DNA from: a virus
Lineage: Duplodnaviria; Heunggongvirae; Uroviricota; Caudoviricetes
Reading direction: 5' to 3' (one strand)
IMG/VR virus record: IMGVR_UViG_2537561928_000019
DNA: 4,256 bases
Made by a program: the position numbers and the translations under genes. Below the pieces are notes generated by a model that saw nothing but the letters and a program-made list of their open reading frames with translations, was not told the origin of the DNA and searched no databases. This document shows, piece after piece, positions 1-4,256 of this stretch (its first letter is position 1; the number at the start of each line of letters is the position of its first letter).

Positions 1-67
1 CTTCGCCTTCGGCAAGACCTTCGAAGTATTCTTCGTAAGCCTTTTCCATGATTGCGTCGAAATCCAT
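1..67 (-). CDS. 5' end of a small prophage early-left-operon protein (possibly YdfB-like); the rest lies beyond the left window edge
   Basis: Minus-strand ATG at 67..65 preceded by an AGGTGA Shine-Dalgarno-like motif (rc of 72-77). Open frame to the window edge; visible N-terminus is MDFDAIMEKAYEEYFEGLAEGE. The start lies 1 nt after the stop of the upstream ORF (TGAtATG), an operon-type junction. Not in the ORF track because it has no stop inside the window. Confidence 0.45.
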   Translation of the reverse strand, partial: MDFDAIMEKAYEEYFEGLAEGE

Positions 68-68
68 A

Positions 69-224
69 TCACTCACCTGAGTTTCTTTCCAGCCAGCGAC
101 GAGCGCCAGTTTCGGTTTTAAACGTTTTGCTTTTGGTATACGTCATCGCGGTGAATGTGCCGTCCTGGTTGGGAAACACGCCGCATACCAGAGATTCGCT
201 GTTGCCAAGATCGATAGTATCCAT
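69..224 (-). CDS. ydfA: Small 51-aa prophage protein, YdfA-like (DUF1391-type family of the Qin dicB-operon region)
   Basis: Within track ORF 69..302(-). Chosen start is the internal Met at 224 (MDTIDLGNSESLVCGVFPNQDGTFTAMTYTKSKTFKTETGARRWLERNSGE) because a GAGGT SD sits 4 nt upstream. The 51-aa length and sequence match my recollection of the YdfA family; assignment is from memory, not a search. Confidence 0.5.
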   Translation of the reverse strand: MDTIDLGNSESLVCGVFPNQDGTFTAMTYTKSKTFKTETGARRWLERNSGE

Positions 225-400
225 GCTGACCTCATTTCCCCTTAACGCCGGGGTAGCGGAACAAAAACCTGCTGCATAGTTAAAGTTGAACCCTGCCGTC
301 ATGTTCTTACGCCTCGGGCTGGCTACTTAACCCCTGACCACTGCCTGGTAACTCGAAGTATTGCCCTGCATTATGTGGGGCGGGGTGGGTTGATATTTTT

Positions 401-443
401 AGTTTAATAAACATTAAACTTAAGTCAAGTAAAAACTAAACCG
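401..443 (-). promoter_or_regulatory. OL-like operator/promoter element for the leftward early operon
   Basis: Perfect 8-4-8 palindrome AGTTTAAT-aaac-ATTAAACT at 401-420. On the minus strand, TTGACT (428..423), a 16-nt spacer and TAAACT (406..401) form a sigma70-like promoter reading toward ydfA. The segment 402-420 is 17/19 identical to 1427-1445, and AACTAAACCG at 434-443 recurs as CACTAAACCG at 1457-1466. Confidence 0.5.
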
Positions 444-512
444 CAGGGCGTAACAAACACAACGCTTTTGATAAAGTCGTTGCGGTTGTTATGTTTCTAT
501 TGGTAGTGAAAG

Positions 513-791
513 TTAGGGAAACTGGCGTCTTGCGTGGATCACGTTTACTACTTCAACGCTTGATGTTGTTACGCGGTATAGAATTATATAGTTAGGGTGG
601 GCTACAATCTCACGCAAGCCAGGTACTCTGTCGCTTGGTGGGTATAAATACGGATGTTCGGATAACGGCAGCACACAACCCCTTAATCGCTGCCATAAGC
701 GTTCAGCCGCATCTATGTCGAAACGAGCAATATAACTAGTTATATCATCTAGGTCGGTATCTGCGCTTTCAAGCCATAACACGGGTAACAT
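513..791 (-). CDS. parE2: ParE-family (RelE/ParE superfamily) type II toxin, 92 aa
   Basis: Within track ORF 513..887(-); start placed at the internal ATG 791..789, 1 nt after the stop of the upstream antitoxin (TAAtATG). Protein MLPVLWLESADTDLDDITSYIARFDIDAAERLWQRLRGCVLPLSEHPYLYPPSDRVPGLREIVAHPNYIILYRVTTSSVEVVNVIHARRQFP has the typical ParE layout and a C-terminal ...YRV...V.VV.V.H.RR motif. I cannot tell paralog 1 from paralog 2 by eye. Confidence 0.75.
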   Translation of the reverse strand: MLPVLWLESADTDLDDITSYIARFDIDAAERLWQRLRGCVLPLSEHPYLYPPSDRVPGLREIVAHPNYIILYRVTTSSVEVVNVIHARRQFP

Positions 792-792
792 T

Positions 793-984
793 TTACTGCT
801 TGCTCCGTTCCTTGCGCATTTTAGCAAAGCGTTCTGCCATTCTGCGCTCAACTTCGTCATGGGGAATTGCTGGGCGTGGATCTGCAAGGCTCGTTGCTAC
901 TTTTGCACGCAGCCATTCGTTGTAACTGTTTTCTTGTTCAATGGTTTCAAATTCAGAAACCATTGGTGAAAGGGCTCTATTCAT
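793..984 (-). CDS. paaA2: PaaA2-type antitoxin (small, likely disordered), 63 aa, partner of ParE
   Basis: Within track ORF 793..1038(-); start at Met 984..982 has a GGAGG SD 4 nt upstream (rc of 989-993). Protein MNRALSPMVSEFETIEQENSYNEWLRAKVATSLADPRPAIPHDEVERRMAERFAKMRKERSKQ matches my recollection of the E. coli O157 PaaA2 antitoxin. Lies between the regulator and the toxin in one operon. Confidence 0.7.
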   Translation of the reverse strand: MNRALSPMVSEFETIEQENSYNEWLRAKVATSLADPRPAIPHDEVERRMAERFAKMRKERSKQ

Positions 985-1004
985 GTTTCCTCCGGTTTTA
1001 TAAC

Positions 1005-1376
1005 TCAGGCGCGGCGGCATTTTTGCGCCGCAATCCATCTCGCTATGAGATCTTCCATTGATTCTTTTTTCTGCTTTAACTCGCTGATTATCTGGCGTTG
1101 CTCATCCTCAGGGAAGGCTGAAAAAATCTGCAATAATTCCAGTTGATTAGACGTTAACCCTGCATGTGGTGGAGAAACCTCCGGTTGTTCTGCGTATTCC
1201 GCATCCAGATACCCTTCCGGCATCCCGTATGTTTGCTCTATTCTTCTGGCAGCCTTTTCTCCAAACGAGGCTCTCCCACTCATTAGTTGAGATAGGTAGC
1301 TCTTCTCTTTGGGTGGCAGAGTTTTATCTTTAAACCACTCCTTGAGACGTAAACGGCGAATTTCTTTTTTTTGCAT
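1005..1376 (-). CDS. paaR2: PaaR2-type CI-like HTH transcriptional regulator, 123 aa (first gene of the three-component TA operon; occupies the prophage repressor position)
   Basis: Within track ORF 1005..1481(-); start placed at Met 1376 (MQKKEIRRLRLKEWFKDKTLPPKEKSYLSQLMSGRASFGEKAARRIEQTYGMPEGYLDAE...). The N-terminal HTH-like segment (SYLSQLMSGRASFGEKAARRIEQTYGMPEGYL) resembles the YdaS-like protein encoded divergently. No SD before ATG 1376, but a GATAAT -10 lies 6 nt upstream, suggesting a leaderless transcript. The stop is 20 nt before the paaA2 start. Confidence 0.7.
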   Translation of the reverse strand: MQKKEIRRLRLKEWFKDKTLPPKEKSYLSQLMSGRASFGEKAARRIEQTYGMPEGYLDAEYAEQPEVSPPHAGLTSNQLELLQIFSAFPEDEQRQIISELKQKKESMEDLIARWIAAQKCRRA

Positions 1377-1474
1377 GTGGTAATTATCTTTAGTAATCAC
1401 TAAACAAGCAAATACTTGACTTAATGGTTTATTAAACACTAAACTCTCAAAAAAAACACTAAACCGAGGAAGGT
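1377..1474. promoter_or_regulatory. Divergent promoter/operator region (OR-like) between paaR2 and the ydaS-like gene
   Basis: Palindrome TTTAGT-aatc-ACTAAA at 1389-1404. Three ACTAAAC-containing elements at 1398-1405, 1438-1444 and 1459-1465. Rightward candidate promoter: TTGACT 1416-1421, 18-nt spacer, TAAACT 1440-1445, then GAGGA SD 1466-1470 before ATG 1475. Leftward candidate promoter (minus strand): -35 TTGCTT (rc of 1406-1411), 17-nt spacer containing the palindrome, -10 GATAAT (rc of 1383-1388). Confidence 0.6.
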
Positions 1475-1777
1475 ATGACATTAAAAGAGTTTATTAAATC
1501 ATTGAGGGTTGGTGATGCTAAGAAATTCGCAGCCAGACTTGGTGTATCGCCATCTTACTTATCGCAAATGGCGTCTGGACGAGCAGCTATATCTCCAACA
1601 CGCGCCCTTATGATCGAATCTGCGACGGAAGGCCAAGTAAGTAGGGCGGAGCTACGACCCCATGATTGGGAGCTTATTTGGCCTGAGTATGCGAGCGGCA
1701 TTCGTTTGGGGCAAACACATGTAGTTCATGCTGAAGGTGATTGTAGTGCATGCTTATCTGATGGAGTTGATTCATGA
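1475..1777 (+). CDS. ydaS: YdaS-like Cro-type HTH regulator, 100 aa
   Basis: Track ORF 1475..1777(+). HTH-like segment FAARLGVSPSYLSQMASGRAAISPTRALMIESAT. Divergent from the CI-like regulator, as in cI/cro and racR/ydaS pairs. Stop overlaps the next start (ATGA at 1774-1777). GAGGA SD upstream. Confidence 0.7.
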   Translation: MTLKEFIKSLRVGDAKKFAARLGVSPSYLSQMASGRAAISPTRALMIESATEGQVSRAELRPHDWELIWPEYASGIRLGQTHVVHAEGDCSACLSDGVDS

Positions 1778-2199
1778 AAATCAAGCATGAACACATCCGC
1801 ATGGCGATGAATGCCTGGGCGCATCCGGACGGTGAAAAAGTTCCGGCTGCGAAAATTACCAAAGCGTATTTCGAGCTGGGAATGACGTTCCCGGAACTGT
1901 ATAACGACAGCCATCCGGAAGCCCTGGCTCGCAATACTCAGAAAATTTTCCGCTGGGTGGAGAAAGACACCCCTGATGCGGTTAAAAAAATTCAGGCGTT
2001 GTTACCAGCTATCGAAAAGGCAATGCCACCTCTGCTGGTGGCCCGAATGCGCAGCCACAGTTCAGCCTATTTTCGGGAGCTGGTGGAGACACGGGAGCGA
2101 CTGGTGAGAGACGCTGATGATTTTGTCGCAGTGGCAATCGCCGGTTTCAATCAGATGAACCGCGGTGGCCCGGCAGGAAATGCTGTGGCAGTGCATTGA
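1774..2199 (+). CDS. ydaT: YdaT-like protein (CII-like regulator of Rac/CP-933P-type prophages), 141 aa
   Basis: Track ORF 1774..2199(+). N-terminus MKIKHEHI... and size match my recollection of the YdaT family. Translationally coupled to the ydaS-like gene through the ATGA overlap. Confidence 0.75.
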   Translation: MKIKHEHIRMAMNAWAHPDGEKVPAAKITKAYFELGMTFPELYNDSHPEALARNTQKIFRWVEKDTPDAVKKIQALLPAIEKAMPPLLVARMRSHSSAYFRELVETRERLVRDADDFVAVAIAGFNQMNRGGPAGNAVAVH

Positions 2200-2270
2200 C
2201 TGACAATAGCCATATCGAATCGCTTCCGGCAACTCGTGAGTAAAAAGATTCGGTATCAGAAGAGGTGAGT

Positions 2271-3341
2271 ATGGCTAACGCCTGGCTCAGATTATGGCAT
2301 GACATGCCAAATGACCCTAAGTGGCGAACAATTGCCAGGGTGTCAGGGCAGCCAATTGCAACAGTGATGGCAGTGTATATCCACCTCCTGGTGAGCGCGT
2401 CACGAAATGTCACGCGAGGTCACATTGATGTCACGACAGAAGATTTGGCAAGTGCGCTCGACGTGACAGAAGAGGTAATTGATTCAATTTTGCAGACGAT
2501 GCAGGGGCGGGTACTTGACGGTGATTTAATCACTGGATGGGAAAAACGCCAGGTGCTGAAAGAGGACAACGGCAATATTTCGCAAACCGCAAAATCTCCT
2601 GCAGAGCGCAAGAGGGCGCAGCGAGAGAGGGAAAGAAAGCGGGAACAAAATGGCAATTGTCACGGCGCGTCACGAAATGTCACGCACATGTCACGACGAG
2701 TCACGACAGATAAAGATACAGATAAAGATACAGATCAAGAAGATCAAAACACTATGGTCCATGGCGTAAAAAACGCCACGAACCAGGCAGGGGATGTTCA
2801 GACCGTCAATCCTGGTCAGCCAGCAGGCACGACACCGGAAGCCGATTCAGCGTATGCGCTGAAAGCCGATTCGGGCGCTGTGCAGCAGGTGATGACCGCA
2901 AGGCCGGAGCAATCACACCAACTGCAGCAGCCTGAAGCCGATTCCGCCATTCAGCGGGAAGCCGATCGGGTAGTCCCGGAAAACACCGGGCAGCCTGTGA
3001 GACGAGTGGATTATCCGGATGTGTTCGAACAGGTCTGGCGGGAATACCCGCTGCGTGCTGGGGCAAACCCGAAGAAATCCGCTTTCAGTGCCTGGAAGGC
3101 CAGATTACGCGAGGGGGTGTCACCAGAGGCCATGCTGGATGGCGTGAGGCGTTACGCAAGATACCTTGCGGCTACCGGGAAAACGGGAACGGAATTTGTT
3201 CAGCGAGCGACGACGTTTTTTGGACCGGACCGGAATTTTGAAAACCCCTGGCTGCTCCCGGTAAGCGGCACGAACAACCAGCGTTGTGTGAATCATATTT
3301 CTGAACCGGATACCGAAATTCCACCGGGCTTCAGGGGGTAA
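2271..3341 (+). CDS. Putative phage replication initiation protein (in the YdaU / lambda-O position) with a low-complexity central linker and embedded iterons
   Basis: Track ORF 2265..3341(+). I prefer ATG 2271 (MANAWLRLWHDMPNDPKWR...) with GAGGTG 3 nt upstream; GTG 2265 is the alternative. The C-terminal segment VFEQVWREYPLRAGANPKKSAFSAWKARL... resembles a motif I recall from phage replication proteins. The central part is Asp/Lys/Thr-rich low complexity encoded by DNA repeats. Position after the cro/cII analogs matches lambdoid O-type genes. Confidence 0.65.
   Translation: MANAWLRLWHDMPNDPKWRTIARVSGQPIATVMAVYIHLLVSASRNVTRGHIDVTTEDLASALDVTEEVIDSILQTMQGRVLDGDLITGWEKRQVLKEDNGNISQTAKSPAERKRAQRERERKREQNGNCHGASRNVTHMSRRVTTDKDTDKDTDQEDQNTMVHGVKNATNQAGDVQTVNPGQPAGTTPEADSAYALKADSGAVQQVMTARPEQSHQLQQPEADSAIQREADRVVPENTGQPVRRVDYPDVFEQVWREYPLRAGANPKKSAFSAWKARLREGVSPEAMLDGVRRYARYLAATGKTGTEFVQRATTFFGPDRNFENPWLLPVSGTNNQRCVNHISEPDTEIPPGFRG
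2399..2435 (+). repeat. Iteron-like direct repeat cluster 1 (4 copies of GTCACR at 10-11 bp phasing)
   Basis: GTCACG at 2399 and 2409, GTCACA at 2419, GTCACG at 2430. The 21-mer GCGCGTCACGAAATGTCACGC at 2396-2416 recurs exactly at 2666-2686. Confidence 0.5.
2659..2705 (+). repeat. Iteron-like direct repeat cluster 2 (5 copies of GTCACG at 10-11 bp phasing); candidate origin core
   Basis: GTCACG at 2659, 2669, 2679, 2690 and 2700, one copy per helical turn, immediately followed by an AT-rich tandem repeat. Located inside the initiator gene, as lambda ori is inside O. Confidence 0.55.
2707..2750 (+). repeat. AT-rich tandem repeat (CAGATAAAGATA x2, then degenerate CAGATCAAGAAGATCAA); possible DNA-unwinding element
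   Basis: Exact 12-bp tandem duplication at 2707-2718 and 2719-2730, followed by degenerate copies. Encodes DKDTDKDTDQEDQ in the initiator. Directly 3' of iteron cluster 2. Confidence 0.45.
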
Positions 3342-3381
3342 GTGTTGATTTCTGGTCATGAGGTAATTTTCAGGAGGGCTT

Positions 3382-3804
3382 GTGGCAAAAGTTTTTACAC
3401 AAGAAGAGCGGGAAAAAATTAAAGGGCAGGTTGTTGAACTCGTACGCCGGAGTGGGCGTGAGACGTTACGGCAACTGGAAGTCAAGACAGGTGCGACAAG
3501 ATATCTGATGAGCGTTCTCGCAAGAGAGCTGGTTGCCAGCGGCGATGTATACAACTCTGGTTACGGGTTATTCCCGTCTGAACAGGCGCGTAAGGACTGG
3601 CAAAATGCCCGTAAAAAGCTCTCAAGGGCAAAGCTGAAGGAACCATCTGCGGTTGATCCGGACCTTATCTGGTCATTACCTGACGGAGAAATACGTCGTT
3701 ACGACAGGCGTCATAATATGATTTGTACTGAGTGTCGTAAAAGCGAAGTTATGCAGCGCATATTGTCGTTTTATCAGGGGGATGTCCGGTATTTATTGAA
3801 GTGA
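3382..3804 (+). CDS. Hypothetical protein, 140 aa, function unknown
   Basis: Track ORF 3382..3804(+). GTG start with AGGAGG SD at 3372-3377; an in-frame stop 18 nt upstream limits any extension. Starts 40 nt after the initiator stop, so probably the same operon. The protein is basic with a possible HTH-like N-terminal segment (RETLRQLEVKTGATRYLMSVLARELV) and a C-terminal CTECRK motif. I do not recognise the family. Confidence 0.6.
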   Translation: MAKVFTQEEREKIKGQVVELVRRSGRETLRQLEVKTGATRYLMSVLARELVASGDVYNSGYGLFPSEQARKDWQNARKKLSRAKLKEPSAVDPDLIWSLPDGEIRRYDRRHNMICTECRKSEVMQRILSFYQGDVRYLLK

Positions 3805-3872
3805 CGAGATTAAAGTGCATTAGTTCAGATGCAAATTGACATTTTGTGGCACAGGGTAGAGCTAGCGTGGTT

Positions 3873-3896
3873 GTCCGCTTTGTGCCAAGAGCGGAC
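3873..3896. terminator. Candidate stem-loop between convergent genes (weak intrinsic terminator candidate)
   Basis: GTCCGCT (3873-3879) pairs with AGCGGAC (3890-3896) around a 10-nt loop, followed by TTTG. The U-tract is short, so this is weak. Confidence 0.25.
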
Positions 3897-3933
3897 TTTG
3901 CAAAATGGGGGTTATTTCAATCAAAACGTAACG

Positions 3934-4254
3934 TCACAACCAGCCGACGCTCTCTCGCCATTTATAATTAGTAACTTTATCATTTTCGCTTATTTTTTTA
4001 GATATAGAGCGCGGCTCTCTTCCTAGATACTCAGATATTTCTATCGGGGACAAATCAAAATCAACAAGCATGACTCTAAGTTTTTCCATTTCCTTTAAAG
4101 TCCAAGGCTTGCCATAATTTTCATAAAGAGATACCTTATGCTCCCTGATAGTTCGCTTTCTCTGAGTTTCACTTTCCCTCTGAAAAATCTCGCTTTTAAA
4201 TTGTGAACGGAACTCTTTACAGAAGTTGTTATCAGTTTTTTTGTTATATAGATT
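3934..4254 (-). CDS. 3' part of a minus-strand gene running off the right edge; hypothetical protein with a Myb/SANT-like HTH motif, encoded in low-GC DNA
   Basis: Manual translation of the reverse strand gives a 107-codon open frame from the window edge to TGA at 3936..3934: ...NLYNKKTDNNFCKEFRSQFKSEIFQRESETQRKRTIREHKVSLYENYGKPWTLKEMEKLRVMLVDFDLSPIEISEYLGREPRSISKKISENDKVTNYKWRESVGWL. Absent from the ORF track because the start is outside the window. The segment KPWTLKEMEKL...ISEYLGREPRSISKKI resembles a Myb/SANT-type helix-turn-helix. The region is clearly more AT-rich than the rest of the window. Confidence 0.5.
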   Translation of the reverse strand, partial: NLYNKKTDNNFCKEFRSQFKSEIFQRESETQRKRTIREHKVSLYENYGKPWTLKEMEKLRVMLVDFDLSPIEISEYLGREPRSISKKISENDKVTNYKWRESVGWL

Positions 4255-4256
4255 GC

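Follow-up and report, generated by a model that had tools for sequence, protein, structure and literature searches.

The right end of a 4,256-nucleotide (nt) stretch of a Caudoviricetes virus (IMG/VR record IMGVR_UViG_2537561928_000019), hereafter called the window, carries the 3' third (positions 3934-4256, minus strand) of an intact, horizontally acquired gene of 314 amino acids (aa). The gene product is a GIY-YIG nuclease with a C-terminal SANT/Myb-/GcrA-like DNA-binding domain and a long helix between the two. The gene is the first unit of a cargo island of ~5.4 kb with a low guanine-plus-cytosine (GC) content in a Qin/Rac-like lambdoid prophage, and it makes up an autonomous 1.2 kb cassette that includes an upstream region of its own and lies between 24-nt palindromes. 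Prophage cargo slots and the adjacent defense gene PD-T7-1 are already known; the least expected feature is the palindrome packaging beside a very small recombinase. On balance, analogy with described systems makes us favor a role as a lone defense nuclease.

An earlier reading of the letters alone (the sequence-only reading) had noted an abrupt GC drop from about position 3960 and a truncated minus-strand gene convergent with the replication operon, and both observations were borne out. In a direct test, the GC fraction was 0.359 at 3934-4256 versus 0.488 at 1-3933, with the best-fitting change point at 3959. The sliding profile, a check that the earlier reading had proposed, was not uniform but fell from ~0.50-0.60 over the replication genes to 0.365-0.38 beyond 3900. 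The AT-richness had also been called unlike the rest of the window. This is correct at the scale of 323 nt, where the lowest GC among the other stretches is 0.368 and none matches 3934-4256, but it does not hold at 200 nt, where the cI/cro intergenic region (1301-1500, GC 0.315) is equally AT-rich. On the minus strand, frame 1 runs without a stop from 4254 until the gene ends with its stop codon at 3934-3936; stops are abundant in the other two minus frames, and the gene converges with the plus-strand DUF977 gene (3382-3804). The visible part encodes 106 residues plus the stop codon, not 107 residues as first counted.

Positions 3700-4256 are 100% identical to DNA of 181 complete Escherichia coli genomes. 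The window itself stops at 4256; extension through the identical E. coli DNA recovered an uninterrupted open reading frame (ORF) of 314 aa. The frame stays open in these other genomes, which speaks against the pseudogene that the truncation might have concealed. Our reference is the locus of E. coli strain UK_Dog_Liverpool (L001; the loci compared here carry L numbers), in which the gene lies at 12235-13179 (minus strand), is annotated as hypothetical protein WP_001678528.1, and is identical to the window over the shared part. Window coordinates equal L001 coordinates minus 8301. No complete E. coli genome matched the window over its entire length. The window is a mosaic, with positions 1-3279 resembling L011-type prophages (96.9% identity), the right 978 bases (3279-4256) resembling L001-type prophages (99.7%), and the joint within the 3' end of the replisome-organizer gene. 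Thus, the cargo and the DUF977 region have been recombined onto different immunity and replication modules.

The N-terminal two thirds of the protein, invisible in the window, form a GIY-YIG nuclease domain, which makes it a nuclease with a Myb-like DNA-binding tail and not a Myb-type regulator. In an alignment of 31 members, reaching down to 38% identity, G-x-Y25, Y38-V-G40, R48, H52, E153, and N171 are invariant; the E. coli protein carries the motif pair as G23-V-Y25 and Y38-V-G40. Judging from the alignment and the published spacing in I-TevI and UvrC, we take Y25, Y38, R48, H52, E153, and N171 to be the positions of the GIY-YIG catalytic motif. Catalytic roles for R48, H52, E153, and N171 are suggested by their spacing and by analogy with the same two enzymes. 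The Pfam model GIY-YIG (PF01541) was matched by 31 of 31 members at E ≤ 0.1 (best 7e-6). Taken alone, the E. coli protein reached 15.8 bits, under the gathering score of 22.6, which the distant members P0074 and P0094 clear. The AlphaFold2 model built from the family alignment (predicted local distance difference test, pLDDT, 93; predicted template modeling score, pTM, 0.85) contains an alpha/beta domain from residue 1 to ~165, followed by a small middle region. Motif, catalytic residues, and alpha/beta fold all agree with the GIY-YIG superfamily. The connecting helix that follows (Table 1) is the least conserved stretch of the family.

The Myb/SANT-like helix-turn-helix (HTH) proposed from the sequence holds at the level of the predicted fold, a three-helix bundle in which helices 2 and 3 provide the HTH; at the sequence level (Pfam SANT/Myb models PF00249 and PF13921) the support is marginal. 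Myb_DNA-bind_6 was matched by 6 of the 31 members (best E 9.8e-4) and HTH_38 by two, with marginal scores, and the E. coli protein matched neither. The invariant C-terminal positions in the same alignment are G256, W259, E265, L267, R268, F274, R287, I296, and W307, of which W259 and W307, with F274 in the middle position, may correspond to the regularly spaced aromatic core of SANT/Myb domains. A profile of this part of the family matched GcrA/Myb-repeat proteins and one LAGLIDADG fusion (P0149). The motif had been called uncommon in bacterial proteins; Myb/GcrA-like three-helix domains are, however, not that unusual in proteins of phages and mobile elements. A sequence profile search of the PDB returned a Myb-like factor at E 1.8 and otherwise only chance antibody matches. 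Foldseek gave local, domain-level matches and no whole-protein match in the PDB and BFVD, and PADLOC, NCBIfam, and PHROGs, searched with the protein, yielded nothing besides the GIY-YIG motif.

The family is small. Among 5.8 billion proteins we found 72 homologs, nearly all ~310 aa long and aligned over their full length, most of them named 'GIY-YIG nuclease family protein'. Their hosts are Enterobacterales, Aeromonas, Vibrio, Photobacterium, Thalassotalea, Pseudoalteromonas, and Undibacterium. When 1.84 billion representative proteins were scanned exhaustively with HMMER, no more than 140 hits emerged; the full architecture was limited to a handful of clusters (fewer than ten), and ~60 clusters of 200-230-aa proteins matched only positions 1-208. 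The ratio of nonsynonymous to synonymous substitution rates between E. coli and three other genera was 0.07-0.18, which marks a functional gene under purifying selection. Its GC content is 0.32-0.41 in hosts with flanks of 0.33-0.63 at all loci but one, the exception being the high-GC Rugamonas locus L036 (gene 0.58, flanks 0.68). The 1.2 kb cassette (L001 12174-13371) occurs in 289 of 5426 complete E. coli genomes, 180 of which also carry PD-T7-1 while the rest do not, and in three plasmids. The nuclease gene had zero matches among 50,697 phage genomes, and only 7 of 2.9 million viral contigs contained it; it is therefore not a conserved core phage gene, a possibility that the sequence-only reading had named as fatal to its proposal.

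The cargo island lies between DUF977, the last replication gene, and hokD. It comprises the GIY-YIG cassette, the PD-T7-1 cassette, the 200-aa tyrosine recombinase, and a gene of no assignment. In L001, the upstream same-strand neighbor of the nuclease gene is a 449-aa gene that matches the PADLOC model PD-T7-1 at E 7e-157; it is followed by the recombinase on the opposite strand, a 326-aa gene, and then hokD/sok, rem, DUF968, RusA, and Q. The GC content is 0.34-0.40 over the two minus-strand island genes. Backbone homology with Qin/Rac-like prophages reaches window position 3779 (L011) or 3892 (L012), and the slot between DUF977 and hokD is occupied by QueH in L012 and by two unrelated genes in L011. 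DUF977-hokD is therefore a variable cargo position, and the segment is a variable insertion among related prophages. The proposal of foreign cargo of the moron or defense-island type at the end of the replication module is supported. PD-T7-1 was validated as a single gene, in a clone that reaches only 45-302 bp beyond the ORF and excludes the GIY-YIG gene (PMC9519451, Table S2), and it is also active alone when expressed in K-12 (PMC12409345). Because this validated gene adjoins the nuclease gene, 'defense island in a prophage' is literally true. In clinical lineages of E. coli, DUF977-hokD is a concrete cargo slot of Qin/Rac-like prophages and holds stacked defenses.

Two other parts of the island deserve mention. 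The 326-aa gene downstream of the recombinase (L001 16356-17336, plus strand) matched nothing in Pfam, PADLOC, NCBIfam, or PHROGs. The 313 nt between the second A palindrome and the PD-T7-1 stop codon (L001 13414-13726) have a GC content of ~0.41-0.44, versus 0.34-0.40 in the flanking genes (400-nt windows), and contain no convincing ORF and no Rfam match.

Every module border of the island is marked by a 24-nt palindrome with the stems GTCCGCT/AGCGGAC and a 10-nt loop of type A or B (Table 1). The related E. coli genomic islands L009, L010, L013, L014, and L045 also carry these palindromes at module borders. A and its flanks match the reverse complement of B to ~76%, and a junction of B, 18 nt, and A folds into one long hairpin (z = -5). 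In L009, L010, L048, and L054, which are unrelated islands and viral contigs, the cassette is common from A to B. The left limit of homology is 3873 in L009, L048, and L054 and 3871 in L010, at most 2 bases from the start of A, and the right limit falls within or just beyond B. Over the shared stretch, the cassette recurs at 98.8-99.5% identity in five or more unrelated contexts. The QueH prophage L012 carries a degenerate A of its own at the corresponding point of the backbone, and its homology with the window stops inside the palindrome. In L010, the GIY-YIG cassette directly abuts the recombinase with the join within B, so that the PD-T7-1 cassette of L001 is a clean insertion when compared with L010. 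In CFT073, the palindromes also bracket non-defense modules, for example a TonB/ABC iron-uptake operon.

The B-A junction was found in 703 of the 5426 E. coli genomes, usually in one copy and at most in three, and we rejected ordinary high-copy repetitive extragenic palindromic (REP) elements on these grounds. A reading of the A hairpin as simply the terminator of the two convergent genes found no support: its loop is 10 nt long, the fold reaches z values of only -1.0 and -1.8, the minus strand lacks a T-run, and the plus strand offers no more than TTT. An Rfam search of the island returned sok/hokD only and left the palindromes without a family. None of the contexts examined outside E. coli (L002-L008) contained the palindromes. 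The B palindrome with ~45 nt of flank (L001 13301-13371) matches more than 100 Pantoea and Klebsiella plasmids at 80-90% identity, and the border element is therefore not confined to E. coli chromosomes.

The small tyrosine recombinase, which consists of the catalytic domain only and is divergent from the cassette array, is found in 905 of the 5426 E. coli genomes, CFT073 and Nissle 1917 among them. The cassette beside it varies by strain and may be PD-T7-1, HEC-08, the GIY-YIG gene, or a 191-aa gene. In L013, the position held by PD-T7-1 in L001 is taken by the candidate defense HEC-08, beside DRT1. Strain PK8275 contributes a further nuclease-type cassette to such an array: it encodes, two genes from the small recombinase, a 340-aa protein with 25% identity to PD-T7-1 (L047 11442-12464, minus strand). 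A perfect 15-bp inverted repeat, CATACTCAAATCTCC / GGAGATTTGAGTATG, spans the recombinase start codon (L001 15358-15396, fold z -5.9) and could be a regulatory or binding site. With integron-integrase models, the recombinase scored 17.2 bits for TIGR02249 (cutoff 265) and 17.6 bits for NF011946 (cutoff 435), which places it outside both. The palindromes may be sites of this recombinase, or conserved hairpins that host homologous recombination as in the PeSL cassettes of T4.

This packaging shares with integrons, the pdif modules of Acinetobacter, and the PeSL cassettes of T4 the discrete modules between short imperfect palindromes, as well as a divergent tyrosine recombinase with interchangeable cassettes at one position. 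The likeness to integrons is confined to the divergent topology of integrase and cassettes. Unlike integron sites, the sites described here are hairpins of 24 nt, frequently paired as B-18 nt-A, and lack the GTTRRRY core; in contrast to an integron integrase, the putative recombinase has just 200 aa. Some palindrome-bounded modules are not defense genes (TonB/ABC in CFT073). A bold proposal, unlikely enough to be called speculative, is that the A/B palindromes and the 200-aa recombinase constitute an undescribed integron- or pdif-like cassette exchange and that the GIY-YIG/Myb-like protein is a new single-gene anti-phage family carried by it. Such an exchange system would move PD-T7-1, HEC-08, the GIY-YIG gene, and further single-gene modules between genomic islands of E. 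coli, plasmids, and lambdoid prophages, and the window would then hold the outermost array site (3873-3896) and the 3' end of the first cassette. If the palindromes do reflect site-specific recombination, this would explain how defense genes move at single-gene resolution among islands, plasmids, and prophages.

Clustering of 315 neighbor ORFs from 23 loci in other species revealed no recurrent neighbor, and PD-T7-1, which accompanies the gene in the L001-type context only, was absent from all 23. The nuclease gene is therefore a stand-alone cassette. Several of its surroundings are linked to defense or mobility. In E. coli, it lies beside a type I restriction-modification (RM) and DarTG cluster in a CP4-44-like island, and beside a restriction endonuclease and the same small recombinase in L010. 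AbiH adjoins it in Aeromonas and a TIR protein on a plasmid-like contig of Yersinia; in Thalassotalea it follows a BrxR-headed operon, and in Undibacterium HEPN-RES and HNH genes are near. The Brenneria copy resides in a region resembling an integrative and conjugative element (ICE), the Salmonella copy in a mobilizable element with ThsB/TIR genes, and the Kosakonia copy is a lone low-GC insertion among housekeeping genes. The 114 nearest neighbors include type I RM genes, integrases, and CbtA toxins, plus many housekeeping genes. An adjacent DNA methyltransferase was found in none of L001, L002, L004, L008, L038, L041, and L044, and type I RM genes are near the gene in a few loci only.

Single-protein GIY-YIG defenses are known. 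PD-T4-3/CMoRE is a modification-dependent type IV restriction enzyme made of one protein (PMC12923530), and a further precedent has been described (bioRxiv 10.1101/2024.10.26.620412). Our protein shares with PD-T4-3/CMoRE the residence on E. coli mobile elements and the absence of partners. It differs in that the PADLOC PD-T4-3 model is unmatched at E ≤ 1, in that the 'GIYxY-YIG' motif of CMoRE has an extra tyrosine whereas the protein reads G-V-Y-L-I without a third tyrosine, and in its C-terminus, a Myb/GcrA-like three-helix bundle in place of the novel modification-sensing fold of CMoRE. Matches to Uzume (UzuA, E 0.015) and PDC-S14 (E 0.0075) cover ~45 residues at the GIY-YIG motif only, as they do in distant relatives, and do not make the protein a member of either system. 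GIY-YIG restriction enzymes of type II (Eco29kI type) have a cognate adjacent methyltransferase, which the gene lacks at the seven loci named above. A GIY-YIG defense encoded on PICIs is also reported (Fillol-Salom et al. 2022; FS_GIY_YIG in DefenseFinder). PD-T7-1 (Vassallo et al. 2022), itself a single-gene defense of the nuclease type, shares the island, the strand, the low GC content, and the palindrome-bounded cassette. Its fold is PD-(D/E)XK (PMC10952713; bioRxiv 10.1101/2024.10.26.620412), and the two proteins thus belong to different fold families, have no sequence relationship, and are distributed independently. With respect to GcrA and eukaryotic SANT/Myb domains, the domain here is a single copy fused to a nuclease, with marginal Pfam scores. 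A literature search for GIY-YIG with Myb/SANT in defense yielded nothing relevant, a search by accession number was empty, and no such protein features in the domain-centric and metagenomic defense screens. We would file it as an uncharacterized single-protein nuclease cargo of mobile elements, outside the I-TevI family, CMoRE/PD-T4-3, Uzume, and PDC-S14.

What the nuclease does for its carrier has to be weighed from context and analogy. With a validated anti-phage neighbor and a swappable prophage slot, the gene is most likely one more phage-defense gene and not a core phage gene, and we consider it somewhat probable that the protein acts as a lone DNA-targeting nuclease in defense or in competition between elements. 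The Myb-like domain and the linker helix would position the protein on DNA, which the GIY-YIG domain would then cut; the prophage would thereby shield its host from other phages or plasmids, in the way of the single-protein GIY-YIG defenses PD-T4-3/CMoRE, PD-lambda-1, and Uzume. DNA modification, sequence, or structure are candidates for the discrimination between foreign and host DNA. Recombination at the palindromes may have brought the cassette into the prophage, perhaps catalyzed by the adjacent small recombinase. Several observations weigh against a defense role. No self-protection (methylase or immunity protein) is visible, and no PADLOC defense model was matched significantly, PDC-S14 and UzuA being the best. 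Some copies are broken: a viral contig (L054 5509-6141) retains a 210-aa ORF, and copy H120 (NZ_CP091773.1) is partial, with 62% coverage. In representative genomes of other species many neighbors are housekeeping genes (MFS transporters, GNAT acetyltransferases, dehydrogenases, ribonucleotide reductase), so that guilt by association is moderate; with moderate confidence, we regard the defense association as real.

A nuclease joined to an HTH is, moreover, equally the architecture of homing endonucleases. In the main rival reading, the gene would be a selfish, free-standing gene resembling these, whose Myb-like domain recognizes a specific site, perhaps a palindromic module border or an empty slot, where the GIY-YIG domain nicks or cuts and repair copies the cassette into new locations, any benefit to the host being incidental. 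We hold this to be possible though unlikely. The I-TevI-like domain order, local BFVD matches that at their best include intron-associated and homing endonucleases, and the fusion of the same C-terminal domain type to LAGLIDADG in P0149 all agree with it, and so do solitary low-GC insertions among housekeeping genes, as in Kosakonia, and the recurrence of a precisely delimited, nearly identical cassette in unrelated contexts. Yet the group I intron endonuclease model TIGR01453 reached only 14.5 bits against a cutoff of 56.05, over residues 22-63, and compared with I-TevI the protein has ~60 additional residues between H52 and E153, a middle domain, and a compact model (pTM 0.85) instead of beads on a flexible tether. 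Its location also differs from that of I-TevI- and Seg-type enzymes, being bacterial islands and prophage cargo and not introns, positions between conserved phage genes, or intergenic sites of lytic phages. The phage genomes in which free-standing homing genes live lack it (0 of 50,697), and homing retains the same flanks, whereas the context here differs in nearly all of the 23 species. The recognition helix is highly conserved throughout the family and not diversified as in target-tracking enzymes, and the neighbors in the E. coli cassette slot are defense genes.

Two further roles were weighed. Its position immediately downstream of PD-T7-1, on the same strand and with similarly low GC in 180 E. 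coli genomes, might suggest a second component of that system (sensor, regulator, or co-effector). This is essentially excluded: PD-T7-1 protects as a single gene (PMC9519451), also alone in K-12 (PMC12409345), a 547-bp spacer with two palindromes separates the genes, and PD-T7-1 is missing from ~109 of the E. coli genomes that carry the nuclease gene and from each of the 23 loci in other species. We also regard as improbable a DNA-binding regulator or a repair or recombination factor of the carrier elements, for instance one that aids cassette excision or integration or a nuclease for element maintenance. GcrA/Myb-like domains are typically transcription-factor modules, the gene resides in the backbones of ICEs, integrative and mobilizable elements, and plasmids, and the small tyrosine recombinase is its immediate neighbor in E. 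coli L010 and Salmonella diarizonae L015. In most loci, however, no recombinase is nearby, the invariance of all putative catalytic residues points to a real nuclease, and the palindromes are missing from L002-L008. Should the protein indeed be a defense nuclease, it would add a rare and compact family to the few immune enzymes that consist of a single GIY-YIG protein. Joining a DNA reader of the Myb/GcrA type to a GIY-YIG cutter, it could then serve as a nuclease that is programmable or senses modifications.

Table 1. Positions of the nuclease gene, its domains, and the surrounding elements in the window and in related E. coli loci
Feature	Position	Strand	Basis or remark
3' part of the nuclease gene	window 3934..4256	-	translation; stop codon 3934-3936; residues 209-314 at 3937-4254; 4255-4256 are part of codon 208
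C-terminal three-helix SANT/Myb-/GcrA-like domain, residues 256-303	window 3970..4113	-	G256-K-P-W259; helices 261-273, 278-285, 289-303
Long connecting helix, residues 218-251	window 4126..4227	-	AlphaFold2: helices 218-226 and 228-251, pLDDT ~94
Type A palindrome, 24 nt, GTCCGCT-TTGTGCCAAG-AGCGGAC; left boundary and crossover point of the cargo	window 3873..3896	.	sequence, homology limits
Type A palindromes	L001 12174-12197 (= window 3873-3896), 13390-13413
Type B palindromes	L001 13348-13371, 15331-15354, 17561-17584
Tyrosine recombinase, 200 aa, catalytic domain only, divergent from the cassette array	L001 15394-15996	+	
Same small recombinase in other loci	L010 8240-8842; L013 9607-10209; L045 9056-9658 (CFT073)
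Putative terminator-like hairpin, 7-pair stem, T-rich tail ACGTTTTGAT, over the nuclease stop codon	window 3930..3951	-	consensus scan only
DUF977 family gene, last of the prophage replication module; phage backbone, not cargo	window 3382..3804	+	ORF; annotation in identical E. coli DNA

The left 3.3 kb of the window contains a RelE/ParE module, cI/cro-like genes, YdaT, and most of the replisome organizer. The RelE/ParE toxin and its antitoxin (513-1038, minus strand) lie directly beside the prophage repressor gene.

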